Origin: Patescibacteria group bacterium UBA924
Lineage (GTDB): Bacteria > Patescibacteriota > Microgenomatia > UBA1400 > PJMF01
Reading direction: 5' to 3'
Assembly (NCBI GenBank): GCA_002293725.1
Contig: DBDU01000016.1
Span: 1-60,544, forward strand
Length of the DNA: 60,544 bases
Shown here: positions 3,774 through 53,482 of the stretch, one piece after another
Layout: every line of letters starts with the position of its first letter
Numbering within the stretch: the first letter of the stretch is position 1
Made by a program: the position numbers and the translations under genes
Notes under the pieces: generated by a model
What the model saw: only the letters and a program-made list of their open reading frames with translations
Databases searched by the model: none
Told to the model about the DNA's origin: nothing

Positions 3774-3845
3774 AAAACCCTTACTTTTCAGTAAGGGTGA
3801 TGAGGGTCTCAACTTCTTTTTTTTTGTAGTTTTTTCTAAGGTGTG

Positions 3846-3917
3846 CTCCCCGGCTAGGATTCGAACCTAGAACCTTGTCGTTAACAGCGACCTGCTCTAC
3901 CGTTGAGCTACCAGGGA
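3846..3917 (-). tRNA. tRNA-Asn (GTT)
   Basis: Cloverleaf folded by hand. Acceptor TCCCTGG/CCGGGGA, anticodon loop CTGTTAA, T-arm CTAGG-TTCGAAT-CCTAG. CCA is not encoded. Confidence 0.9.
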
Positions 3918-14835: not shown

Positions 14836-14923
14836 GGAGGTGTCGCATAGTGGTCAATTGCACACGCCTGGAAAGCGTGATCCTTCACGGGATACAAGGG
14901 TTCGAACCCCTTCACCTCCGCCA
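14836..14923 (+). tRNA. tRNA-Ser (GGA), CCA encoded
   Basis: Acceptor GGAGGTG/CACCTCC, anticodon loop CTGGAAA, long variable arm, T-arm AAGGG-TTCGAAC-CCCTT. Confidence 0.9.
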
Positions 14924-25087: not shown

Positions 25088-26752
25088 CTAGAGGGCAAGG
25101 AAGCCTACGATACCGAGGATGATCGCTAGTGCTCCAACTCCCATAGCTTTGAGCACATCTGCACTTCCGGCCACTGGCAAGCTGGTTGGCTGCTGTGGTT
25201 GTGGTGAAGGTTGCCCTTGAGCAACTGCTTGACCAGCTGGTGTACAGGTGTCGCTAGTAATGTTCGTCTCTAAGCGGCAGCGGCGTCCACTTGTAGTGTC
25301 AACACAGATCTGGCTTGCTGATTTACAGTCAGAGTTGTTGACACAAGTGTCATTACATCCAAGGACTGGTGAAGCCACTGGTGATGGATTGACGATCGAA
25401 CATTGATTACTGTCACAGTTCGCTCCGTTGACACAAGCCGTTAGCTTACATGTGCCACCATTACAGGTGTGATCATTTGGACAGTCTGCATTGGTGCTAC
25501 AGGTACTTCCACAAGCAGTCACTCGACATTGATCACCGCTACAACTGGCGCCGTTGACACATGCATTGAGTTTGCAAGTCCCATTGTTACAGCTATGGTC
25601 GTTTGGACACTCACTAGTGGTACTACATGAGCTGCCACAAGCAGTGACGCGACATTGATCGGTTGTACAGGCTGCTCCGTTGACACAAGCTGTGAGTTGG
25701 CAGGTTCCGTTGTTACAGGTGTGATCCTGAGGACACTCACTAGTGGTACTACATGAGCTGCCACAGACAATAGGTGTTGGCGATGGACTTACACCTGGGG
25801 TTGGGCTGACCACTGGGCTTGGAGTCACACCAGGAGTTGGTGAAGCTGCAGGACTTGGGCTCACACCTGGGGTCGGGCTTGGCTGTGGTGAAGTACCAGG
25901 AGGGACTGAAGGTTGAGGAGATGATCCTGGTGGAGTAGTTGGGGTTGGAGGCGTACATGCCACATTTGGACAGACAACCACTGCACTGACTAATGTTGAG
26001 TAGTCATTGTTAATATGTCCATTAACACATGAGTTGCTGCCACCTGTTAAGACGTCGACCTGGACACATTTACATGATTGGTTGGCGATCTGTTGGGCAT
26101 TTACTGTTCCAGTAGTAACTTGAGGATTGAGCACTGTACAGTGGCCGTTAGAGTCTAACTGATCACATTGATGAATAGCGATACAGCCGCCAGGTTGGCT
26201 ACTACAAGTTGTTCCCTGACAAACATCTCCACCACCACCGGTTCCTGGAGTAGCTGAAGGTCGAGGAGTAGGTGAAGATGTACCAGCGGGACCGCCACCA
26301 CAGCGACCACTGCTACAGGTTACATTTGCATTACAACTTTGCTCGTTAACAAAGACGCCGTCTTGACAGGTAACTTGGGTTCGAAGGTCTTTACACGCTG
26401 TTTGACCATGGGCGACACCACCAGCACAACTGCGCTGAGTGGCGACACATTTAGAGGCATTACTTGCTCCAGCGTCGCAAACTTGACTACTAGAACACGC
26501 CGCCATCATCTCGAAAGCACCGTTATTACAACGAGCTGGTTGACGGAAACCGGCACAGGCATACCCACCACTTGGAACTCCGCCAGCACAACTGGCATAT
26601 CCTGCAGCTTGTTGACGAATTTCTTGAGGTCGGCTGACTAAGTAAAGACCTACCGCTCCGCCAATCACTAAAAGAAGCAAAACAAGTCCAAGGAGAACGT
26701 ATCTCAACTTAATTTTTTTCAAGCTTTCGGAGTTGATTTGGGGTAACTGCAT
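25088..26752 (-). CDS. Cys-rich modular cell-surface protein (N-terminal signal anchor, PT-rich linker, LPVAG-type C-terminal anchor)
   Basis: N-terminal TM helix and many Cys. A 62-aa Pro/Thr/Ser linker. Three 42-aa repeats of the form [42 protein letters not shown]. The C-terminus is LPVAGS plus a hydrophobic helix. Confidence 0.7.
25388..25765. repeat. Three tandem ~126-nt coding repeats (42-aa Cys-rich modules)
   Basis: Residues 330-371, 372-413 and 414-455 of the surface protein are near-identical in Cys spacing. A fourth degenerate module follows. Confidence 0.85.
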
Positions 26753-28573: not shown

Positions 28574-28649
28574 GGGTGCGTAAGAAGATTCTAGTTGTAG
28601 ATCATACCCTTCTTTAGTACCGTGGATAAAAGTACTTTTGAAAGACGTC

Positions 28650-29846
28650 ATGCACGAATATGAACAGGGTATAGATATTACTGATCGCGTCAATAAACTG
28701 GAGAACGGCCTGCTCCGAGAATCTTATAACCCACAGGGCCACAAAGAGAGTCACTTTACGCTTTTACTTGGACAAGTAGAGGGTGTCGACTTCAATCTTA
28801 CAGACCCAGACGGACCACTGGGTGATCGGGTAATCATGAGCGGCTTTTACCGCGCACTTGAGTATCTCATCGCTCGTTACTATCCCCAAACGGTAGATGG
28901 AGAGATGGGTTCAAGAAATCATATCTTGATGTTACCTCAGGTAATGCCACTTTTTTCTCGATCAGGAAGAGAAGTATCGCCATATATTCAAGCCGGTACT
29001 ACTTTTCCTCGAAGTAGTGAGCGACTCGCTGTGAATGCTACGATCGCCATGGTCATTAATGCCAAAATGAGAGTCTTATTAGAAGGAGACCCTACTAAGT
29101 TCTTGCTGTACCAACAGTTCGGAGAGAAAAAAAAGTCAATTGAAGTAGATTACGCCGGAGCTCTTTATACCGTTACATATGACAAGTATCAGGAGCGTCG
29201 ATACATCATCGCTGCCGCACTGGCGCTAGGAATTCCGGAGAGTCAATGGGACGATCTTCCCACTATCATCCCAGAGGTTCTCCCTCCATCTGCTGAAGAG
29301 CTGACTGCGGCTCAACAAAAGTTTGAGATTGAACCTGGAGCACTTCACCTCGGAGTAGTGATTAACACCTCCTTAGAAGAAAAGTTCGTTCCTCTAGCTC
29401 AATGGAAAAAGATGCTGGTAAGGATAGAGCAAGACCTCCAGCAGCAAGGGTACGACTTTGAGAGTCGACCTGTACATGTTCACGTTTTTTATAATCCTCG
29501 CAGTCCAGGAGCTCTTGATTTTCCGTTAGATCAAGTCCAGTCAACTTTTGGTGATAAACTCGGTCAGTTAAACATCCATTATTTAGGGGCAGAACTGAGT
29601 GAACTTCCAGCTGCACTACAACTACAAACGGTTCTCTTGTCTGTAGACACTGCCTTAGCTCATATTGCCGCTGCACTGCCTGAAGGCCCAGAAGTAGCGA
29701 TGATCTTTGAAGATTATCACTGGCCAGCTAATGTCTGGCAGTCCAATCATAAGCAGCATCCTATTTTTAAAGGCGATGCACTAGAAGATCAGTTTCATCA
29801 GACTTCAATGTCACTTATTCACCAACAGATGAAAACTGGGAAGTAA
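28650..29846 (+). CDS. GT9-like glycosyltransferase (heptosyltransferase-family fold), paralog A
   Basis: N-terminal PLGDRVIMSGFYRALEYL (GT9 LGD motif) and C-terminal LLSVDTALAHIAAAL (GT9 DSGPMHLAAAL-type motif). The ATG at 28650 is preferred over the TTG at 28638. Confidence 0.5.
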   Translation: MHEYEQGIDITDRVNKLENGLLRESYNPQGHKESHFTLLLGQVEGVDFNLTDPDGPLGDRVIMSGFYRALEYLIARYYPQTVDGEMGSRNHILMLPQVMPLFSRSGREVSPYIQAGTTFPRSSERLAVNATIAMVINAKMRVLLEGDPTKFLLYQQFGEKKKSIEVDYAGALYTVTYDKYQERRYIIAAALALGIPESQWDDLPTIIPEVLPPSAEELTAAQQKFEIEPGALHLGVVINTSLEEKFVPLAQWKKMLVRIEQDLQQQGYDFESRPVHVHVFYNPRSPGALDFPLDQVQSTFGDKLGQLNIHYLGAELSELPAALQLQTVLLSVDTALAHIAAALPEGPEVAMIFEDYHWPANVWQSNHKQHPIFKGDALEDQFHQTSMSLIHQQMKTGK

Positions 29847-29855
29847 AACACGGCC

Positions 29856-31157
29856 ATGCCAACTCGTAACTTTGATCAACGTGCACAGTTCATGCCAGCC
29901 GATGAGAATAAAGGTGAGAACATTACCTTTTTGATTGACCGAGGCGAAGACGTGATGACTGCTCAGTATGAGGCAGCTGTTCAGCAAGCAGCTGAAACGC
30001 ATCCTGGCTCTGAGCGCTTCATCTATCGACCCACATTCTTAGGGAAGCAACTGGAGAGTCGGGACGGGATTGACTTTAATCTTGCTGATCCGGGAGCTGC
30101 ATTAGGTGACAGATTAATTTGGACTACTTTTTTCCGCGCTTTTGATGTTCTCTCACAACTGTATGCGGATAAGTTTCGCCCTGGGGAGCTGCCTCCGCTC
30201 CAAAATACACTTTATATCACTCCTGAAATCTTGCCCTTATTTGAAAGAGACGGACGAACAGTCTCATCACTCATTACAGGAGCGCCTCAATCCCCAAGAA
30301 CCTCTGGCCGACTAAGTTTTGTGGCGCATTACTCTATGAGCGCGATGGGGGCAGCGCATGCTCGGATGGTAGGTAATGAAGGTCGCTTCCTTTCTTACCG
30401 TCAATTTGACCTTCCCGATCAGAAGAATAGTTTAGAAGTAGAGTACGGTGGGGCGTTAGCTACAGCTACTTATGATAAGTATGGTCCGAAGCGCTACACG
30501 ATTGCGGCAGCCCTTGCTCTAGGTATTCCTGAGGGTGAGTGGGACTCGCTACCCACCATCGTCCCCGAAGTTTTGACTCCCCATGATGATGAGTACCGCC
30601 AAACCATCGAGCGTTTTGGTGTAAATAATGAAGCTATTAACATCGGAATCGTGATTAACTCGCAACTGCGAGTAAAAATGGCAACACTAGAGGTGTGGAA
30701 ACATATTATGTTCGCCACTGGACTAGGTATCTTCCGTAAACAGCTGAATCCCAATCAACGACCCATCCATTTTAATGTTTTTTACAATCCATCCTCGCCC
30801 AGTCGGGATGACTATAAAGTAGAAGAAATGCAAGCCATGTTTCAAGACAGAATTACTTATATTTCCCCCAAAAGTGATAATGAGACAGTTGGTGAAGTAA
30901 AGTACATTGGAGCCAATTTAGCTGAGTTACCTGCGTTATTGGAAGCACAAGATGTGCTTCTTTCTGTCGATACAGCGTTGGCACATATTGGAGCAGCACT
31001 AGAGTTTGGCCCTGAGGTAATCATGATGTTTAATAACAGTCAGTTTTCTCAACAAGAGTGGCAGTCGAGCAGTAAACAACACCCCGTGCCGATGACCGGA
31101 GGGTACTCCGATCAAGTAGCTAACTTAGCCTTACAACACCTTCGCTTAAAAGCGTAA
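29856..31157 (+). CDS. GT9-like glycosyltransferase, paralog B
   Basis: Collinear with paralog A (ALGDRLIWTTFFRAFDVL; YDKYGPKRYTIAAALALGIPEGEWDSLPTIVPEVL; LLSVDTALAHIGAAL). Starts 9 nt after paralog A. Confidence 0.5.
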   Translation: MPTRNFDQRAQFMPADENKGENITFLIDRGEDVMTAQYEAAVQQAAETHPGSERFIYRPTFLGKQLESRDGIDFNLADPGAALGDRLIWTTFFRAFDVLSQLYADKFRPGELPPLQNTLYITPEILPLFERDGRTVSSLITGAPQSPRTSGRLSFVAHYSMSAMGAAHARMVGNEGRFLSYRQFDLPDQKNSLEVEYGGALATATYDKYGPKRYTIAAALALGIPEGEWDSLPTIVPEVLTPHDDEYRQTIERFGVNNEAINIGIVINSQLRVKMATLEVWKHIMFATGLGIFRKQLNPNQRPIHFNVFYNPSSPSRDDYKVEEMQAMFQDRITYISPKSDNETVGEVKYIGANLAELPALLEAQDVLLSVDTALAHIGAALEFGPEVIMMFNNSQFSQQEWQSSSKQHPVPMTGGYSDQVANLALQHLRLKA

Positions 31158-31823: not shown

Positions 31824-31868
31824 CGAAAACTACACTTATTGAAAGCTTCTTTTTCTATACTCTGGCCG

Positions 31869-32501
31869 ATGTCTACATTAGCTCCCAGAGAAAAATTACA
31901 ACTCCACGGCGTAAGTCAATTGAAGACAACTGAACTGGTTGCTTTGGTACTCGGCACGGGAACTGCGCAGCACTCCGTCACCGAGTTAGCCAATGAAGTT
32001 GTTGAACGTTTACAGCAACATCCATTGACTTTAGAAAAGTTAACTCAGGTGCCGGGAATTGGCATCGCAAAAGCTTGCCAGCTTTTAGCAATGATTGAGT
32101 TTGTGGAGCGAGTTCGCCCCATTGGTTTTCCAGTTATTGATCAACTAGACAAAGTTACTTCCCTTGTACCTGAACTGAGATCGGCACAAAGAGAACATAT
32201 TGTGGTACTTTACCTGAATGCTCGACTTCAGCTGTTGCTAAAAGAAACGGTGGCTATTGGCAGTGTTAATCAGTCTATCGTCTCAGCCCGAGATATTTTT
32301 TCAGTTATTAAGTATCATCCGGTTAGTTCATTAATTCTTGTTCACAATCACCCCAGTGGGGTACCTCTTCCTTCCCCTGAAGACTTCATTTTTACGCAAC
32401 GAATAGTTCAGGCAGCCGAGGTACTCGGAATTGAAGTTTTGGATCACGTCATCATCGCTGAAAAAGGTTGCTACTCATTTAAGGAACATCAACAGCTGTA
32501 A
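31869..32501 (+). CDS. radC: RadC-like JAB/MPN domain protein
   Basis: PREKL...G...L...EL N-terminus, HhH region (VPGIGIAKACQLLA), and JAMM motif LVHNHPSG. The ATG at 31869 is chosen. Confidence 0.8.
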   Translation: MSTLAPREKLQLHGVSQLKTTELVALVLGTGTAQHSVTELANEVVERLQQHPLTLEKLTQVPGIGIAKACQLLAMIEFVERVRPIGFPVIDQLDKVTSLVPELRSAQREHIVVLYLNARLQLLLKETVAIGSVNQSIVSARDIFSVIKYHPVSSLILVHNHPSGVPLPSPEDFIFTQRIVQAAEVLGIEVLDHVIIAEKGCYSFKEHQQL

Positions 32502-32507
32502 GTGATT

Positions 32508-32822
32508 TTATTTTTCTTCCACGATCTGCTTCAAAATTGCTGAAAGCTCCTCAAGCTCTACTTTCAACTGCTCCACCCTTGCCAACGCTTCGGCTACCTT
32601 TTGGCCAGTAAAAAAATGTACGGGACGCTGTGTGTGATAAGCAATTTTTTCGATGTACTCACGGTCGGGTGGAATCTTCCCACTCTCAAATGCTGAGATA
32701 GACTGGGGAGATAGTCCGATCAACTTGGCAAGATCTGCTTGACGAAGATTTTTAGCTTGCCTCGCCTGCTTAATCTTTTCGCCTAGAACTTTCGCCGCTC
32801 GTGGAGTGAGTGAACTTGCCAT
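32508..32822 (-). CDS. XRE-family helix-turn-helix transcriptional regulator
   Basis: IKQARQAKNLRQADLAKLIGLSPQSISAFESGK HTH_3 pattern with a C-terminal coiled coil. Confidence 0.8.
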   Translation of the reverse strand: MASSLTPRAAKVLGEKIKQARQAKNLRQADLAKLIGLSPQSISAFESGKIPPDREYIEKIAYHTQRPVHFFTGQKVAEALARVEQLKVELEELSAILKQIVEEK

Positions 32823-32845: not shown

Positions 32846-33496
32846 CTATGTTCTCTGGAATCCTTGAGCTTCAAGCTGATGGACGGCGTTCCAAATACTC
32901 ATCGGAACTTCCTGCTCAACTTGAAAACCCTGTTGAGCATAATCTCGCATTCGATAGACATATCCAATCATCGCGTTGATCACTCGCCTGGCACTGTGTC
33001 GTTCGTCCAAGAATGAAGTAAAGATACTAGGAAGACTTGTAATCACTACCTGTTGATTCGGCCAAATTTTTTGGAAGGTAGCGAGTGCTCGTCGTTCCAT
33101 GTATGGCTTTGTGACTACTAAAAAGCTGTGGAGTTGAAGTGATTTCTCAGCTAGCAACTGACGTGTAAAAGTAATGTTTTCGCCTGTGTTCGTCGCACGA
33201 TGTTCAAGCAACAGTACAGCTCTACTTACGCCATTTGCTTCCATCACCTGGGCAAACTTTTCGGCTTCCGAGAATGGTAAAAAATGACTAGAATGCCGGG
33301 AAGCCTGGCCCGTGATTACAACATACTTCGCCATTCCTCGATTGAAAAGATCTGCAGCATACTTCGCTGTTCGTAAGTCGTCATTTCCAAGAACGATCAT
33401 GCACTCTGCTGGTTGAAGTGATTGATGCAGGCAGTGGTAGTTCCACAGTAAATCCGCATATGAAAGGAGTTCAGTCGAAAGAAGCTGTGCCATCAT
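32846..33496 (-). CDS. DUF218 (YdcF/ElyC/SanA-like) domain protein
   Basis: CMIVLGNDDLRTAKYAADLFNRGMAKYVVITG ... NTGENI, typical of the DUF218 Rossmann-like core. Confidence 0.65.
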   Translation of the reverse strand: MMAQLLSTELLSYADLLWNYHCLHQSLQPAECMIVLGNDDLRTAKYAADLFNRGMAKYVVITGQASRHSSHFLPFSEAEKFAQVMEANGVSRAVLLLEHRATNTGENITFTRQLLAEKSLQLHSFLVVTKPYMERRALATFQKIWPNQQVVITSLPSIFTSFLDERHSARRVINAMIGYVYRMRDYAQQGFQVEQEVPMSIWNAVHQLEAQGFQRT

Positions 33497-33513: not shown

Positions 33514-36500
33514 TTATCCTGACAGAGTGTTGGCCATAAACTGTTGCATAAATGGTGAAGCGCTGTGATACAGCGAAAGCTTCCGGTACATCCACCAAAG
33601 TAACTTGTGAACCAGCACGGTGTGTTCTCCTTTTGGCGAGCGGAAAAAGACTTGGCGGAACTGCTCAATTTTTTGAGCTAGCTCCATTCCTGCTAAGTTA
33701 GGAACATCTGCCTCAATACCTAGGGCAAGGAGTGCCCCTCGTAGGGACTTCTCATCACCTGAAAGTAAACCCCGGACCAGCTGGACAATGACTTGGTGAA
33801 GCTCGGGTTGTTGGCGTAAGTCTAAAGTAAAGCCACCATCAATTGAGGCGAGTTGCTTCTCCGTTCCGTCTGGCTGACGAATAAAGTTCCCAAGATGGTC
33901 ATCTAAGTTAAGTAAACCAATCTGCAGATCCTGAAATGCTCCAAAAAGCAGCTGCATAATTTCCTGGTCATCATGGCCAGCATCTGCCAATACTTTTCCT
34001 TCTACAAACTCAACCATAATCATGTACTGACCCGTAGCAATTACTTCTGGTGTGTCAAAGGTAACCGTTCGCTGATCATTACTTGATTCGTACTCAGAGA
34101 AGTACTGCGCTTCTCGTTGTTTGCTCCGCTCTTCTAAGATAATAGTGGTGATTACGTCAGTCAGGTCAACCGGAATGTCCATTTGATGACCTCGTCGCTT
34201 CATCTCAGTGAGGAAGCGCTGTAGATCTCGCACATCATGGGCAATTTGACGCATACCAATTACACCTGGTTTAACAACTTTGATCACTAGCTCTCGCAGA
34301 ACTTTCTGACCATCGGGTTGAGTCTGTGCAACTTCTACTAAGTAGGCCTGACAAATTCCTGCTGATCCCAGCGGGCGAAGGTAACGGGTAATCTCAAAGT
34401 CGACGAAGTTTCCTAACTGATTCTTTTCATACTCAAAGACTTTTTGGAGTTCAGCTGGACGAACAAGCTCAGCGTTCCACAACCCTTGTTTGAATACTTC
34501 TTTTAGCTCAGTGGGAACCCACGGATAGTCTGCAACGAGCTGTGCAGATTTGATTCCTACGCTGCCAAAGCTCAGTACAGCGATATACAACATATCTTCC
34601 ACTGCTAAGCGTTGCCCCATTCGATCAAGCTCAATCATCTTATTGACGATGTTACTAATTACTGTCGAGGCTTTCAGCGGTTCCATACTAACTAAAGCGG
34701 CACTTAAAATCTCTCGATACCGAGCAGTTGTTTCTGGGGTATGTCGATCACTGTCCTTGATGAACAAGGTAGCTAAGTTTTCGGCAAATGATTGACGGTC
34801 GACCCGCTCATCGTTACTGACAGAAGGGTGGAAAACATCGCCATCAGCAGAGTGCGGTAAAGAGAGTGTTGCTTCTGGTCCATACACCAATCTTTGAATA
34901 ACTTGCTTTCGTTCCGCGACCGTTGCCATCAAAAATGATGTTCGTAAGTTAGAAAGGTCTGCGTTAGCCTTCCGTTCGTACTCAACAAAGATTTTTCCAG
35001 TCGGTTTAGGACTGTTTTCATCAATCAGATAAAACAAAAGCTGCCCTTTTTGATCTACGGCGAGGTCGCCAATTACATCGAAGAGCGTAACTTTATGTCG
35101 TTCTCGTTCTTGATCTTTTTGGATTCCAGATTCATCGACGATGTAAGACTCAATGACCGCAACTTCTGCGGGTGTCACAGTACACCGTGTCTGAAGCTCA
35201 GCCATAAACTCATTTCGTTCAAAGCTTCCTTCAGGAAGGTACTGCAAGATAACTTGGAGAGCGCTGGCATAATCGGTAAAAAATTGAGCGTCTGTGTCAA
35301 TTCTCTTTCGTAACAAGGGGGCATCTAAGTGCGAGTTTTTCGCTGCACTTTCGGGGAAGAGTAAGAACTCTTGGTAAAGATACTCTGCATCCTCTTTTAC
35401 TAGATCATCTCGCTGAAGTGCACGGCGAATGATGTACTCAATATAAATGGTAACTACTGCAGTCTCGATTCCCCGACTTACTTCTCGAACACGTGCAATG
35501 GCGGCTCTAAAGTTTGTTGCAGTTAACTCAGCCAGTTCAGTATCGTTATCAAGTAACCGCCGGGCAATGAAGTACTCCGTAAACCCAACTGAGATACCTT
35601 TAGAAAAATCACTCTCTTCTGTGTCTCTACTACCAGCTGAACCAACAAAAAATGGGTACTCTAGAGCCGACTCATATGCATATCGACGTGTACCAACGGT
35701 CTCATAGATTTCTTGAGCAAAAAACTTGTAACCAATTGTGTGCTCTAAGTAATCTGGCGTCCGTGACTCTTCAGACATGTAGTAAGAAAGCGTATCGACT
35801 TCAGTAGAGCTGCGGCCAATAGTTTTCCAGTCTTCGCCAGTAAAGAGGGAAAGTAAGTACTCTGATGCTTCTCTCATCTCACTTTTGTGACGATGATCAG
35901 CGAAGTGGTCGTAGAGTGCCCAACAGTAAGCAAAGAGCTCATCTTGCAGGGGCCCGGGAACTGGAAAGTTCTCCTGAACCAGCTGAATCATCTGTTTGAA
36001 GTCAGCAACTCGTCGCAAACCGTTGAATCGTTCGGCAATCTGCTGCTGTTGCCAAATCGGGATGTTCTTTTCCAGTTTCTTTTTTCGTTCCCATCCTTTA
36101 TCCATCGCTCGGATATACTGTTTAGCAGTTGCATAATCTTTGAAATCTACCTGTCTTTTTAACGGGGCATACATCTCTGCAATTTGGTCTCCATTCCCCC
36201 CTAAAATCAGATTCAAAAGAATTACTCGGGCATTATCATCTTTGTGCCATTTATGCGTAGCAGATGAAAGGTGCCCTTGGAAGAATGCTTCGTTACCTTT
36301 CTGCCCCAACCAATTATTTCTGGTTGCATAGGCGTATACGGAGAGACGATCTTGAGTTCTCATGGGCAGAGGTGAGACTCGTCTTTCTATTCCACCATAT
36401 GGGTCGTGAGCAGTTTCCATAAACAAACCACGCTCTTCAGCCAAGCGAATGAACTGTAATAACTTCTCAGAACGCGTGATGAGTGCTGAGTGTACTAATG

Positions 36501-39500
36501 GCTTTCCCATCCAATCTGCTTTAGGAACAGGGATGTTATTGGCTAAAACAAAGTCTAGAAAGCCATCAAGCTCAATTGGGGTGTCTACTCGTTCTGTACC
36601 TCGCCATTTTTCAGCAGACTCTTGAAAGGAGTAGTTTGTACAGAAGTACTTGGCAAACCACCAAAAGTCTTTTTCATACAGATGGGCCGTGTGATAGCTC
36701 TTCCAATGTTTTTCATCATCTTCTACTACGGCAACTTGATACTTACGATATCTCGCTCGTAAGACATCAGCCATCATCCGTTGCATCGGTTTTGATCGAT
36801 TATCGTACTGCCCCCAGCCAGCACGATGTTCAAACAGGATATTGAGCGACAGATCTCCGTTGCCAGTAAAATCGAGTTCGACTACACCAGCCCTAAGAAG
36901 AATGCCATACTCTTTGAGGGATAATTTCAACGTTGAACGGCGTGGGTAACTGATATCACAAGCCTTGACCGTTTTTTTCAACTCAGCCACCAGTTGTGGA
37001 TCGGGACTATCTATGTCACCTGCTTTTAATTGCTTCATTAAGTCTGCAAAGAGTTCTGGATCTTCGTATGAACGTTCTTCTAAGGTCCCATGAAGGTAGT
37101 GCCACTCCCAGTCATCAGCGAGAACCTCTCGGATTGGATATAACAATGCCATTGACTCTTCTGACTCCCGGATATGCCAGTGTGACTCTGTACTTTTAAT
37201 GCGGCCATCGTCTTCAAAAACTAACACTCCGTCAGGTAAAAAAGCTCTAAAGTAAGCATTCAAGCAAGCGCTTTTAAAGCGGCGATTACTAGTAGAGAAG
37301 TGACCATCTCTGCCCTCTGAAGTCGCGTGCTCATCTTTCATACGCGCACCTAACCAATCACCACCATTTTCCGGAGAGAAGTTTTCCAGGTTAGTTTCAA
37401 TATTGTTCGGCAAGTAGACTTTATTTTTAAACTTATCTAACAGCGTAATAATCTTGCGAGCATATTCTGGATCCGCTTTCATCTCTGTTTCAGCTATACG
37501 TTCAACGGCCAACCAATCATGAGTTAAGACTGCTGACAGCCAAGCTGCAACCAATTCTTGGGAAAGAAAAGCGAGATCTTCACGTTGTCTTAATAAGAAA
37601 GCTGCGTGGTCAACAAAAGGCAGTAGTGTTTCCAATCGACGAGTTTCTAACATCCCCACCGTCACCCCGATTGCTTGGTGAGCATCTACATAGTCTTCCC
37701 CGGAAAGAAAGGGTCTCGGTTCTGGGGCTACTTTACTGCCAACTCCACGCGCACGTTGCTGCGCAAAGCGAGCTAGTTGAAGCTGCTGTGCTAGCTGTCC
37801 ACCTATTTCGGGCAGTGACCAGTCGTAGACTTCTTCTGACAGTAAATCTTGATTGTACGTTTCAGTTGTAGCTTCCTGATGAAGCTCTTCAATATGTGTC
37901 AACAACAAAGAGTACATCTTACGCTCTTCGTCGCTTTCTACTGTAGCCAAAAGATGACGAACCGTTTCTGTAACTGCCCAGAATAAAAGCTGTTGAAACT
38001 CAGCTAATGATTGGAAACCACCCTCATCACTTTGATCAGCAAAGTGACTTGCCAAACTGTAGTCAATCATTTGGGTCGGAGTTTTTGACTCATCAGTAGT
38101 TGTTGAGTACTTGCGTTGTTGGGGCCAACGCCGTTTTGAGTAAGCTTTGAGCCAAGCAGTAAGTTGATCCAAAATATACTGGCGATCTGGATACGAACCC
38201 TCTTGATACTCATCTCTTTCCATGTACTTTCCATAGAGCGAGCGCAGAATATCAGAGAGATAGTTAAGTCTCAGCTCAACAATGTCCGCTTCTTTTGAAG
38301 CGAAAGGGTAAGTATGTTGAGAAGGAAGATTAGGTTGAGTGTAAGCAATGACATCTCGGAACAGCTGTCCATCTTTGTTGGTGATAACTGCTTCTGGCTG
38401 ATGGATATCCCAGCTCCCATAGCTTGAAGCATTTAACTGATCGCCATGTCCCTCTGCCATTACTTCTGCTAAAAGGGTTTCGGGAAGTTCTTCACCACCA
38501 GCGATATACTCTGCTTTTTTCTCCTGGAGACGATAGTAGAACTTGAGTGCTCTTCCGACTAAAACGAGCTTAGACAGATGATAGTAAGCCGAGGTAGGCG
38601 TATCGTAGCGCTGTTGAGCTACCTCTACATTGATGCGGACGTCGTAAGCGAGATATGCTTCCCAAAAGTCAGCAAACGAGCTTGCTTCATTCATGCGTTG
38701 AATGAGTTCGCTAGAATTACTCGTAAAGAGTTTACGTTGTTGTTCTAACTTACGTCCTCGTTCTTCATCATTAAAGAGATTTTCTAGTACCTCTTCCGGA
38801 ATATCTTGATCTTCAAGAATGTTCTCTAAGAGATGCGGTCGGGCGGCATAGACTTCATCAATAGTCGCCTGCATTCGCGCAATTCGCGAGTGAGTGAAGG
38901 GATGACTTGGCGCGAAGCCGGCTTCTCGTTTCCGAATCATCAGCTCATGAGCTTGCAGGGCTTCGATAAAATCTTCAGGATCGTAACCCAACTCAATCAT
39001 GGCAATGATAGCCGCACGGTCAGCGTTGTACTCCTCAGGATGCCCACTAAACTTAAAGGGATGAAAGTACTCATGGAGAAAGACCCCCATGATATGACCT
39101 TTTTTCAGCTTCTTGCCCCCTAAGGACTCAGATAACACTTTTCGGACGTAGTACCATGAACCAACAGTCAGGTAGATGACTCGCTTGGTCCGCTCTTTAT
39201 CAGTGGACACGTAAGAAGAGTCTTTACTCTCACCCGTATTAAGCACCACCAAGTTGACTTCCTGGGGTTTAGATAAGCGACCCTCAGCACTGAAACGATC
39301 CGTTAACGACTCTAAGAGTTGTTCTACTTGTGGAGTAGCAATCAGTGACATCAAGAGCTCTACGAAAGGATGATCTGCCGATAAGACATCAGCTGATTTG
39401 GAAGGATCAGTTTCACCGTAGAGGATAGGAAGTCCTTCCATCTGATCAAACTGTTCACACAGTTCAATGAGGGAAGTTAAGGCTGCAAAGCTTTCAAGTT

Positions 39501-39513
39501 GTCGAACTGACAT
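33514..39513 (-). CDS. Giant (1999 aa) multidomain protein: N-terminal M48-type Zn-metalloprotease motifs, ~1400-aa helical middle, C-terminal ABC1/UbiB kinase-like domain
   Basis: N-terminus: HEYFH (res 147-151), EEYNADRAA, SHPFTHSRIARM (the M48 HExxH...ExxAD...HPxxxxRI set). C-terminus: KSAQLVADYP..., LGSAGICQAYLVEV...VIKVVKPGV, IMVEFVEGKVL, LDDHLGNFIRQPDG...ASIDGG (ABC1 pattern). No signal peptide or TM helix is evident. Confidence 0.6.
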   Translation of the reverse strand: MSVRQLESFAALTSLIELCEQFDQMEGLPILYGETDPSKSADVLSADHPFVELLMSLIATPQVEQLLESLTDRFSAEGRLSKPQEVNLVVLNTGESKDSSYVSTDKERTKRVIYLTVGSWYYVRKVLSESLGGKKLKKGHIMGVFLHEYFHPFKFSGHPEEYNADRAAIIAMIELGYDPEDFIEALQAHELMIRKREAGFAPSHPFTHSRIARMQATIDEVYAARPHLLENILEDQDIPEEVLENLFNDEERGRKLEQQRKLFTSNSSELIQRMNEASSFADFWEAYLAYDVRINVEVAQQRYDTPTSAYYHLSKLVLVGRALKFYYRLQEKKAEYIAGGEELPETLLAEVMAEGHGDQLNASSYGSWDIHQPEAVITNKDGQLFRDVIAYTQPNLPSQHTYPFASKEADIVELRLNYLSDILRSLYGKYMERDEYQEGSYPDRQYILDQLTAWLKAYSKRRWPQQRKYSTTTDESKTPTQMIDYSLASHFADQSDEGGFQSLAEFQQLLFWAVTETVRHLLATVESDEERKMYSLLLTHIEELHQEATTETYNQDLLSEEVYDWSLPEIGGQLAQQLQLARFAQQRARGVGSKVAPEPRPFLSGEDYVDAHQAIGVTVGMLETRRLETLLPFVDHAAFLLRQREDLAFLSQELVAAWLSAVLTHDWLAVERIAETEMKADPEYARKIITLLDKFKNKVYLPNNIETNLENFSPENGGDWLGARMKDEHATSEGRDGHFSTSNRRFKSACLNAYFRAFLPDGVLVFEDDGRIKSTESHWHIRESEESMALLYPIREVLADDWEWHYLHGTLEERSYEDPELFADLMKQLKAGDIDSPDPQLVAELKKTVKACDISYPRRSTLKLSLKEYGILLRAGVVELDFTGNGDLSLNILFEHRAGWGQYDNRSKPMQRMMADVLRARYRKYQVAVVEDDEKHWKSYHTAHLYEKDFWWFAKYFCTNYSFQESAEKWRGTERVDTPIELDGFLDFVLANNIPVPKADWMGKPLVHSALITRSEKLLQFIRLAEERGLFMETAHDPYGGIERRVSPLPMRTQDRLSVYAYATRNNWLGQKGNEAFFQGHLSSATHKWHKDDNARVILLNLILGGNGDQIAEMYAPLKRQVDFKDYATAKQYIRAMDKGWERKKKLEKNIPIWQQQQIAERFNGLRRVADFKQMIQLVQENFPVPGPLQDELFAYCWALYDHFADHRHKSEMREASEYLLSLFTGEDWKTIGRSSTEVDTLSYYMSEESRTPDYLEHTIGYKFFAQEIYETVGTRRYAYESALEYPFFVGSAGSRDTEESDFSKGISVGFTEYFIARRLLDNDTELAELTATNFRAAIARVREVSRGIETAVVTIYIEYIIRRALQRDDLVKEDAEYLYQEFLLFPESAAKNSHLDAPLLRKRIDTDAQFFTDYASALQVILQYLPEGSFERNEFMAELQTRCTVTPAEVAVIESYIVDESGIQKDQERERHKVTLFDVIGDLAVDQKGQLLFYLIDENSPKPTGKIFVEYERKANADLSNLRTSFLMATVAERKQVIQRLVYGPEATLSLPHSADGDVFHPSVSNDERVDRQSFAENLATLFIKDSDRHTPETTARYREILSAALVSMEPLKASTVISNIVNKMIELDRMGQRLAVEDMLYIAVLSFGSVGIKSAQLVADYPWVPTELKEVFKQGLWNAELVRPAELQKVFEYEKNQLGNFVDFEITRYLRPLGSAGICQAYLVEVAQTQPDGQKVLRELVIKVVKPGVIGMRQIAHDVRDLQRFLTEMKRRGHQMDIPVDLTDVITTIILEERSKQREAQYFSEYESSNDQRTVTFDTPEVIATGQYMIMVEFVEGKVLADAGHDDQEIMQLLFGAFQDLQIGLLNLDDHLGNFIRQPDGTEKQLASIDGGFTLDLRQQPELHQVIVQLVRGLLSGDEKSLRGALLALGIEADVPNLAGMELAQKIEQFRQVFFRSPKGEHTVLVHKLLWWMYRKLSLYHSASPFMQQFMANTLSG

Positions 39514-39514
39514 A

Positions 39515-39551
39515 TTTTGAACTAGTTATTATAACCTATAACTGTTCAAAA
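39515..39551. promoter_or_regulatory. AT-rich 14/15-bp inverted repeat abutting the giant gene start codon
   Basis: TTTTGAAC(T)AGTTAT - TATAACCT - ATAACTGTTCAAAA. On the minus strand the distal arm ends 1 nt before the ATG at 39513. Confidence 0.35.
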
Positions 39552-39608
39552 TGGGGTGTAACTAAGTGTGCTAAGTCAAGCTAAAGTAGCTATGCATCCT
39601 GTCGGATA

Positions 39609-48973: not shown

Positions 48974-48978
48974 ATGGG

Positions 48979-49061
48979 CGGAAGGGGAGGGATTCGAACC
49001 CTCGATCCTTTCGGATGCCGGTTTTCAAGACCGGTGCACTAAACCACTATGCGACCCTTCC
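48979..49061 (-). tRNA. tRNA-Ser (TGA)
   Basis: Acceptor GGAAGGG/CCCTTCC, anticodon loop CTTGAAA, long variable arm, T-arm GAGGG-TTCGAAT-CCCTC. The 3' tail is CCC, not CCA. Confidence 0.9.
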
Positions 49062-49106
49062 AAGAACGTCAGTTATTTTACCATTGATCATGGTACACTT
49101 AATCTC

Positions 49107-49844: not shown

Positions 49845-49916
49845 GCACCCATAGTTTAATGGATAGAATCAAGGTTTGCGGAACCTTTGATCCAGGTTCG
49901 ATTCCTGGTGGGTGCA
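49845..49916 (+). tRNA. tRNA-Arg (GCG)
   Basis: Acceptor GCACCCA/TGGGTGC, anticodon stem AAGGT/ACCTT, loop TTGCGGA (U33, G37), 4-nt variable loop, T-arm CCAGG-TTCGATT-CCTGG. Confidence 0.8.
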
Positions 49917-49943
49917 CAAATAAGTTTTCAGTATGATTGAGTC

Positions 49944-53394: not shown

Positions 53395-53482
53395 GGAAGC
53401 GTGCCGGAGTGGCTAAACGGCCAGGTCTCGAAAACCTTGGGCTCGCAAGGGCACGAGGGTTCGAATCCCTCCGCTTCCGCCA
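53395..53482 (+). tRNA. tRNA-Ser (CGA), CCA encoded
   Basis: Acceptor GGAAGCG/CGCTTCC, anticodon loop CTCGAAA, variable arm with GCAA tetraloop, T-arm GAGGG-TTCGAAT-CCCTC. Confidence 0.9.

Follow-up and report, generated by a model that had tools for sequence, protein, structure and literature searches.

The 60,544-nucleotide contig DBDU01000016.1 of Patescibacteria group bacterium UBA924 (the whole of this stretch is called the window below) carries on its minus strand, at positions 33514 to 39513, a gene for a protein of 1999 amino acids that unites sequences of two known enzyme families, the M48 zinc metalloproteases and the UbiB/ABC1 atypical kinases. Within both superfamilies, this giant protein is divergent, and it belongs to a small, undescribed family of M48-UbiB proteins of 1.7–2.4 thousand amino acids, which share an M48 domain, a helical module with an RR motif, and a UbiB-like domain. 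From the N- to the C-terminus, it consists of five parts: an M48 protease, short conserved helices, a fast-diverging stretch of about 900 residues, a helical module of about 370 residues, and a UbiB/ABC1 kinase domain. We are highly confident of this identity and architecture. The specific mechanism that we favor, in which the M48 protease would be gated or supplied with substrate by the UbiB ATPase, is offered tentatively, and for identity and mechanism taken together as the best explanation overall, we consider the chances to be roughly even.

Domain structure of the giant protein

The M48-type domain follows a variable leader (residues ~1–85) and covers residues ~85–225 (38839..39261, on the minus strand, like all features of the giant gene given below). 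The first-pass annotation of the window had pointed to an M48 triad at this end, and our analysis bore it out. The sequence HEYFH (residues 147–151; 39061..39075) would provide two zinc ligands and the catalytic Glu, EEYNAD (residues 160–165; 39019..39036) contains E161 as the predicted third zinc ligand in an ExxAD motif, and SHPFTHSRI (residues 203–211; 38881..38907) represents the C-terminal HPxxxxR signature of M48, aligning with tHPltseRi of the M48 peptidase 3c37. In a MAFFT alignment of 24 full-length family members, H147, E148, H151, E161, D165, H204, P205, and R210 were all invariant. The HExxH motif occurs once in the giant protein, with about 0.1 occurrences expected by chance as estimated from the composition, and is thus weak evidence when taken alone. 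The first 300 residues, scanned separately, matched the Pfam family Peptidase_M48 (PF01435) with 21.5 bits and an expectation value (E) of 2e-4, above the gathering cut-off of 20.3, and a Pfam scan of each giant relative found this family in 22 of the 24 (best E 6.2e-14). When an N-terminal profile of the family was searched against the PDB, the M48 peptidase 3c37 (E 1.2e-11) and BepA (E 3.7e-7) were retrieved. An AlphaFold2 (AF2) model of residues 60–330 built from the family alignment reached a predicted local distance difference test score (pLDDT) of 85.8 and showed a three-stranded sheet at first and next the HExxH helix; after a short loop come the Glu helix, the HPxxxxR helix, and further helices. 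By its sequence, the N-terminus qualifies as a zinc metalloprotease domain of the M48 type with a complete, invariant set of predicted active-site residues.

The spacing of the predicted zinc ligands varies within the family: the first His of HExxH and the Glu of ExxAD are separated by 14 residues in the window protein, by 33 in most members, and by 56 in 3c37. A shortened protease insert is common to the window's subclade, which comprises the relatives P0009, P0013, and P0029. A further motif, DDEHP(L/I)xNT, is found ~19 residues past HPxxxxR (residues ~242–246 of the relative P0018); it is kept in most members outside the window's subclade and is absent from that subclade, and it could be a regulatory or an extra metal-contacting element of the protease.

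The protease domain is followed by a conserved helical region (residues 226–330; 38524..38838), with a column conservation of 0.39–0.44 and helices in the AF2 model. Together, the M48 domain and these helices (residues ~85–330) have a mean pairwise identity of 0.31 in the family, as computed on residues 100–300. This value is 0.15 for residues 331–1239 (35797..38523), where homology among most members is not detectable by pairwise search, no Pfam family matches above its cut-off, and the whole-family profile finds nothing among PDB sequences. It is 0.27 for residues 1270–1640 (34594..35706), a family-specific, all-helical module of ~370 residues that was delimited by conservation and AF2 modeling and that we term the pre-kinase module. 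AF2 built this module entirely of helices, with a pLDDT mostly of 80–96, and placed it with the kinase domain in one compact unit (760-residue model, predicted template modeling score (pTM) 0.81). Its consensus comprises the invariant pair R1276-R1277 and the motifs VRDxYLE, YLPxxSLARNxFL, and LWLLG, and its profile found no relative among PDB sequences. The part between the two enzyme domains had earlier been described as ~1400 residues of helical appearance without a recognizable motif. That description holds for residues 331–1239 insofar as they match no family, and has to be revised for residues 1270–1640, which form a conserved helical module, and for residues 226–330, which are conserved and modeled as helices. 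Amino-acid composition could not separate the helicity of the middle, all regions being alike in this respect.

The C-terminal domain (residues 1641–1999, including the helices with the KxGQ-type motif; 33517..34593) has the highest mean pairwise identity of the parts compared, 0.35 as computed on residues 1641–1960. An ABC1/UbiB pattern had been recognized at this end from short motifs, and each was found in its place. The stretch IKSAQLV (residues 1654–1660; 34534–34554) contains KSAQ (residues 1655–1658; 34540..34551), the counterpart of the KxGQ motif of UbiB proteins, in which Gly is replaced by Ala both in the window protein and in the family consensus (GKKxAQ). GSAGICQ (residues 1716–1722; 34348..34368) is the Ala-rich nucleotide loop, and LVIKVVKPG (residues 1742–1750; 34264–34290) includes K1745 (34279..34281), the predicted ATP-binding lysine of strand beta-3. 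These are followed by MVEFVEGK (residues 1833–1840; 33994–34017), by DDHLGN (residues 1871–1876; 33886..33903) as the catalytic loop with D1871 and N1876 as predicted catalytic residues, and by IDGG (residues 1891–1894; 33832..33843) as the equivalent of DFG with the predicted metal-binding D1892. In the alignment of 24 members, Q1658, G1716, A1718, E1795 (the alpha-C Glu), D1871, N1876, D1892, and G1894 were invariant; K1655 and K1745 were present in at least 90% of the members, as was Q1722.

Profile and structure comparisons agree with this pattern. The NCBIfam model TIGR01982 (UbiB) matched residues 1685–1960 of the window protein with E 4.8e-10 and 38.6 bits. The best PDB sequence match was Mycobacterium tuberculosis Rv3197 (5yjz; E 1.4e-5), with which the Ala-rich loop (ASASIGQ in Rv3197), the beta-3 lysine (VAVKIQYP), the hinge, and the catalytic loop (gDaHpGN) line up. 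Pfam ABC1 was matched by 20 of the 24 giant relatives (best E 1.7e-25), and P0008, at 55% identity the closest non-self relative, scored 31.6 bits against a cut-off of 22.9. The AF2 model of residues 1240–1999 (pLDDT 85.0, pTM 0.81) consists of ~400 residues of helices and then a kinase-like N-lobe sheet and a C-lobe. All of the best 10 Foldseek matches of this model were UbiB-family structures (COQ8A, Rv3197, and MSMEG_1954; E 5.4e-10 to 4.4e-8), whereas RIO and other kinases ranked after them with far weaker scores. The top match, COQ8A/ADCK3 (4ped; E 5.4e-10), had a template modeling (TM) score of 0.64–0.66 by target length, over ~410 columns compared with a chain of 387 residues. By its sequence, then, the C-terminus is a UbiB/ABC1-type atypical kinase, and a predicted ATPase, that has the full set of phosphoryl-transfer residues and the hallmarks of UbiB; by its modeled fold, the domain is specifically of the UbiB type, including the helices that bear the KxGQ-type motif. 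An orthologue of UbiB itself was considered and rejected: the 38.6 bits compare with an equivalog cut-off of 487.55 for TIGR01982, the giant protein has no transmembrane (TM) segment, and no ubi genes lie nearby.

The conservation of this domain also bears on the possibility that the giant protein is a true protein kinase joined to a protease, in which the UbiB-like domain would phosphorylate the protease, itself, or client proteins and so switch proteolysis or mark substrates. The residues for phosphoryl transfer are all kept across the family (K1745 in at least 90% of members, the others invariant), and 9 of the 24 giant relatives also match Pfam Pkinase (best E 6.3e-06). The Ala for Gly replacement in the KxGQ motif of most of the family and the loop GSAG in the window protein in place of GAAS could alter an occlusion of the COQ8 type, and the title of PMC8956952 calls plant ABC1K6 a Mn2+-dependent kinase. 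Nevertheless, the UbiB-specific helices before the N-lobe are present, A1718 of the Ala-rich loop is invariant, and the model superposes on nearly the whole chain of COQ8A, whose fold occludes protein substrates (PMC8346625). We therefore regard protein phosphorylation as an unlikely function of the domain.

Family, paralogues and selection

The family was collected by a full HMMER scan of 1.84 billion representative sequences with residues 800–1999 of the window protein as the only query (E <= 1e-3). The scan returned 40 proteins, 24 of which are 1724–2447 residues long (representatives at 50% clustering); the domain order is thus recurrent and not a one-off of this contig. The query contained no part of the protease region, yet HExxH was found at residues 116–154 in 23 of the 24 giants and at residue 862 in P0027, with its long extension at the N-terminus; ExxAD followed 14 or ~32–37 residues past HExxH in 23 of the 24. 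A profile of the whole family matched M48 peptidases only at its N-terminal end and UbiB or other kinases only at its C-terminal end. The pairwise identities of the N-terminal block (residues 100–300) and of the kinase block were closely correlated (r = 0.89, 276 pairs), indicating that the fusion is old and has co-evolved rather than been assembled repeatedly. This ancient architecture, built from two known enzyme families, was suspected from the outset to be undescribed. Indeed, we found no paper on an M48-ABC1 fusion and nothing on the giant protein in the literature on UbiB in Patescibacteria, the candidate phyla radiation (CPR); NCBIfam has no dedicated model for the family, and its UbiB models were the only ones matched, far below their cut-offs.

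Among named records, nearly all members are from Patescibacteria. They include proteins of Candidatus Daviesbacteria ('AarF/UbiB family protein') and of WS6 OLB20 ('protein kinase UbiB', UniRef100_A0A136LYL0), in addition to those of the window's 'Patescibacteria group bacterium'. As these labels show, database records are named automatically after the kinase end, and some carry precomputed PF01435 and PF03109 matches together. A scan of 185,579 GTDB species genomes with two peptide patterns derived from a 10-sequence alignment, which gives a lower bound, found eight loci: one each in Daviesbacteria, Roizmanbacteria, Peregrinibacteria, and WS6, three in Peribacteria, and one in a metagenome-assembled genome labeled Pseudomonadales. 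The last encodes the full-length member P0016 on a 405-kb contig (L013, CAYSEI010000001.1) of an 'uncultured Pseudomonadales bacterium'; the label is unchecked, and it may be wrong, since all other named members are from Patescibacteria. A genome-collection scan with the window protein returned nothing. Word-indexed protein searches with the whole protein and with the 24-sequence alignment returned only the protein's own 90% cluster, even though family members are present in the collection searched, which marks this result as a limit of the tool and not as evidence of absence.

One genome, GCA_041740055.1, contains three paralogues at separate loci (L014, L015, and L016), namely P0009, P0013, and P0012. 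The gene for P0009 (2019 residues) adjoins ftsH. P0012 has 1361 residues and no M48 domain; its gene is found beside large serine recombinase and helix-turn-helix (HTH) genes, behind an unrelated secreted protein, and this locus may be a mobile element.

The gene itself is, as first described, a single uninterrupted open reading frame (ORF). It begins with ATG, comprises 1999 codons and a stop codon (complete coding sequence 33514..39513), is the longest ORF in the window, and takes up 9.9% of it, at the same GC content as the rest. Seven sequences, drawn from NCBI, IMG, ENA, Logan, and GEM assemblies, make up the 90%-identity cluster of the window protein, and five of them are distinct full-length variants of 1999 residues. 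The same gene in the same synteny is present in GCA_019454505.1 ('Patescibacteria group bacterium'). Between this allele and that of the window, 2.6% of bases differ, with 135 synonymous and 18 non-synonymous codon changes. The ratio of non-synonymous to synonymous substitution rates (dN/dS, calculated by the Nei-Gojobori method between these two strains) was 0.035 for the whole gene, 0.021 for residues 1–330 (the N-terminus and M48 domain), 0.045 for the middle (residues 331–1239), 0.023 for the pre-kinase module, and 0.028 for the kinase domain; the corresponding values for the neighboring genes purA and purB were 0.045 and 0.034. Since dN/dS is low in every region, the giant gene is constrained like core metabolism over its full length, the part without a recognizable domain included. 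A gene under selection as tight as that on purine-biosynthesis genes does something important, which the labels 'hypothetical' and 'AarF/UbiB family protein' have hidden.

These data also dispose of the notion that the giant gene is an assembly chimera, a pseudogene, or a chance ORF with coincidental motifs. One IMG assembly (P0006 and P0004, on a 1.17-Mb contig) does split the gene, a frameshift after residue 633 giving products of 640 and 1346 residues that are otherwise identical, which probably reflects a sequencing indel and not a pseudogene. Against an artefact stand the five full-length variants in independent assemblies, the distant relatives with the same architecture, the dN/dS of 0.035, and the confident AF2 models of both ends, and we consider the notion effectively refuted. 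Taken together, these data demonstrate that the giant gene lies on the chromosome, is intact, looks expressed, and is subject to strong purifying selection. In the 95-nt intergenic region upstream of the coding sequence (39514..39608), a perfect TATAAT box lies 14–19 nt before the ATG, and no obvious Shine-Dalgarno sequence was seen. The box tentatively suggests that the gene probably has its own promoter; a consensus scan for promoters and terminators reported no full two-hexamer promoter upstream of the gene, and its sites were no more numerous than in shuffled sequence.

As the first-pass annotation had also noted, the giant protein has neither a signal peptide nor a TM segment. The mean Kyte-Doolittle hydropathy over 19 residues peaks at 1.61, within a helix modeled confidently inside the kinase module, and the N-terminus does not resemble a signal peptide; we therefore rejected the view that it is a transmembrane protein. 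Neither feature was found in any other family member.

Possible modes of action and genomic setting

The biochemical role of UbiB/ABC1/ADCK proteins is debated, with ATPase, lipid extractor, and kinase all proposed, and the regulation of M48 proteases such as OMA1 and PGM48 is poorly understood. We suggest that the C-terminal module would act like COQ8 and UbiB, as an ATPase or a nucleotide switch responsive to small molecules or lipids, and not as a classical protein kinase, its cleft being closed to protein substrates. Its ATP state might be relayed through the helical scaffold and so control access to the M48 protease or feed substrate to it, and the protease would cleave its client proteins in the cytosol or on the cytoplasmic side of the membrane, in quality control or regulatory proteolysis. 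The giant protein would then be a single-chain version of the ABC1K and PGM48 pair of plastoglobules.

Several precedents led us to favor an ATP-gated protease. [quoted passage not shown] UbiB proteins and proteases are also paired elsewhere. Cyanoglobules and plastoglobules carry three ABC1K kinases together with the M48 protease sll1280/PGM48 (PMC12223511), and ABC1K7, ABC1K3, and PGM48 are co-expressed (bioRxiv 10.1101/2021.02.05.430006). In Drosophila, ADCK1 functions upstream of the protease YME1L1 without a need for its kinase activity, and the authors suggested that it is an energy sensor switching between YME1L1 and the M48 protease OMA1 (PMC6553794). It is on the COQ8 ATPase and on these pairs that our preference is based; the mechanism remains a possibility for which we claim less than for the architecture.

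Several observations weigh against the identity or the mechanism proposed here. When the whole window protein is scanned, Peptidase_M48 scores 18.4 bits, under its cut-off of 20.3, and the match is confined to the last quarter of the profile; the match of the first 300 residues likewise spans only positions 138–184 of the 186 in the profile, the part with ExxAD and HPxxxxR. Foldseek found nothing in the PDB at E <= 0.001 for the N-terminal model (BepA ranked 7th, with a probability of 0.82 and a TM score of 0.43), so that the M48 assignment rests on sequence. In the window's subclade, only 9 residues are left between HExxH and ExxAD, which makes for an unusual predicted zinc site. At the other end, profile searches gave a significant match to TIGR01982, as they did to M48, but Pfam ABC1 (PF03109) does not report the window protein even at E <= 10; its membership of the ABC1 family therefore rests on transitive homology and fold, the latter confirmed as UbiB-type by the C-terminal model. 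Among the paralogues, P0013 (1957 residues) reads HEAVGH, an HExxxH, in place of HExxH, and on this sequence it may be inactive as a protease. The shorter paralogues P0010, P0011, and P0012 lack any M48 domain, although P0010 and P0011 keep the ABC1 domain; the helical module and the UbiB domain are thus the invariant core of the family, and the protease is their usual, not obligatory, partner. Across the loci examined, no conserved neighbor gene gives a clue to the function. Finally, the plastoglobule analogy concerns prenyl-lipid bodies, which to our knowledge are not known in Patescibacteria and of which neither the window nor the loci examined give any sign.

A broader proposal, to which we assign a rather low probability, is that UbiB ATPases and M48 proteases are an ancient functional pair, in which the ATPase works at the surface of a membrane or of lipids, sensing a hydrophobic ligand or client or extracting it, and the protease then processes associated proteins. 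The two would be separate in plastids (ABC1K and PGM48) and possibly in mitochondria (ADCK and OMA1). Genes of the ubiquinone pathway are absent from the vicinity of the giant gene, both in the window and at the related loci examined, and we know of no quinone synthesis in Patescibacteria. If they make no quinones, the family would show a quinone-independent core function of UbiB proteins, and if the ancient-pair proposal is true, the same family would offer a soluble protein of one chain on which that core function could be worked out.

The genomic setting was compared with two further explanations. In the window, upp, purA, and purB lie upstream of the giant gene, and a DUF218 gene and an HTH gene lie downstream. 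The neighbors in Daviesbacteria are trehalose genes and genes for a signal peptidase, ParB, ribosomal proteins L27 and L21, and FtsZ, and those in WS6 are a transposase and a lyase. A protein of this size from an episymbiont had been imagined as directed at a host or partner, that is, as an effector secreted or injected into another cell. Many Patescibacteria are episymbionts, and the family is found in Patescibacteria, is patchily distributed (at least eight loci in the GTDB species genomes scanned), has several paralogues in one genome, and has a middle that diverges fast between lineages. However, signal peptides and TM segments are absent from all members, and the surroundings contain no secretion-system genes but upp, purA, purB, genes for ribosomal proteins, ftsZ, and similar genes; the GC content is that of the rest of the window, and the dN/dS of 0.035–0.045, which includes the middle, is housekeeping-like and equal to that of purA and purB. 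An effector role therefore seems improbable, and the evidence lends it no support.

Equally, a giant nucleoside triphosphatase joined to a protease might serve as the sensor and effector of an anti-phage or other conflict system that destroys phage or cell proteins on infection. The very large size, the combination of a nucleotide-using domain with a protease, and the patchy distribution would fit, and some copies lie beside a Y1 transposase, serine recombinase and HTH genes, or an AAA_14/DUF4143 ATPase. An XRE-type HTH gene and radC are also just downstream in the window, and weak TCAD9 matches occur in 2 of the 24 full-length members and in the shorter relative P0019. Yet PADLOC gave no match for the giant protein, no relatives were found in viral contigs, most copies stand among housekeeping genes with no conserved partner gene found, and purifying selection is strong and uniform. 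On this evidence, a role in defense appears very improbable, and an ATPase that gates or feeds a protease remains our preferred reading.

The other genes of the window were inspected as well. The DUF218 gene (32846-33496, minus strand) lies 17 nt downstream of the giant gene and is not beside it in other lineages; its dN/dS of 0.40 is about 10 times that of the giant gene, purA, and purB (0.03–0.045), which suggests relaxed constraint. The XRE-type HTH gene (32508-32822, minus strand) stands back-to-back with a RadC/JAB-domain gene (31839-32501, plus strand). Its product matches the HTH part of the PADLOC models RmrA, HTH_VI, and capH (best E 2.9e-15). HTH and RadC pairs often go with mobile or defense elements; no link of this pair to the giant gene was established. 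Three ORFs of 402, 433, and 554 residues (28638-29846 and 29856-31157, plus strand; 25088-26752, minus strand) have no Pfam match, and in the same places the sister strain has genes of 398, 433, and 554 residues, also without a recorded Pfam match. The window contains five tRNA genes (3845-3917, 14836-14923, 48975-49062, 49845-49917, and 53395-53482), three of which are for tRNA-Ser (anticodons GGA, TGA, and CGA). The rest is ordinary chromosome, with dnaG, rpoD, corA, and genes for glutamate dehydrogenase, malic enzyme, S-adenosylhomocysteine hydrolase, two ABC exporters, and a P-type ATPase.

Comparison with known systems

A conserved, ancient fusion is a classical indicator that its parts, here UbiB and M48, act in one process, and this matches the hints from plastoglobules and mitochondria. 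The 6-kb gene is kept in assemblies whose longest contigs are ~0.7–1.2 Mb. With no membrane anchor and with invariant active sites, the giant protein may be easier to approach by biochemistry or cryo-electron microscopy than the membrane-bound eukaryotic pairs.

The kinase end is most readily compared with COQ8A/ADCK3, Coq8, and bacterial UbiB (PDB 4ped and 5i35). It shares with them the fold over nearly the whole COQ8A chain, as well as the KxGQ-type motif, the Ala-rich loop, the beta-3 Lys, the alpha-C Glu, the catalytic Asp and Asn, and the Asp of DFG. It differs in reading KxAQ and not KxGQ, in having no TM helix and no mitochondrial or membrane anchor, in being preceded by ~1640 residues that include a protease, and in the lack of ubiquinone-pathway neighbors. 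Among PDB sequences, the window kinase matches Rv3197/MABP-1 (5yjz) best, and this protein and MSMEG_1954 (7cz2) are also among the top fold matches. Both proteins are soluble by description, as would suit a window protein without a TM segment, but they are stand-alone proteins of ~440–450 residues with neither a protease nor a helical pre-kinase module. The protease end has HExxH, ExxAD, and HPxxxxR in the same order as the Geobacter M48 peptidase (3c37) and BepA (6ait), whereas its ligand spacing is 14 residues, as against 56 in 3c37, and it has no signal peptide and no tetratricopeptide repeat domain.

Two systems combine enzymes of comparable kinds. The ABC1K and PGM48 (sll1280) pair draws on the same two enzyme families, which the giant protein joins in one chain; the members of that pair are separate proteins on prenyl-lipid droplets of photosynthetic organisms, whereas the giant protein is a soluble polypeptide, by prediction, of non-photosynthetic bacteria with reduced genomes. 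FtsH, in which an AAA+ ATPase is fused to an M41 zinc protease, follows the same logic, uniting in a single chain a module that hydrolyzes nucleotides and a zinc protease of the HExxH kind. However, both of its domains are from families unrelated to those of the giant protein and stand in the reverse order, and FtsH is a membrane-anchored, hexameric unfoldase, whereas nothing in the giant protein indicates unfolding activity.

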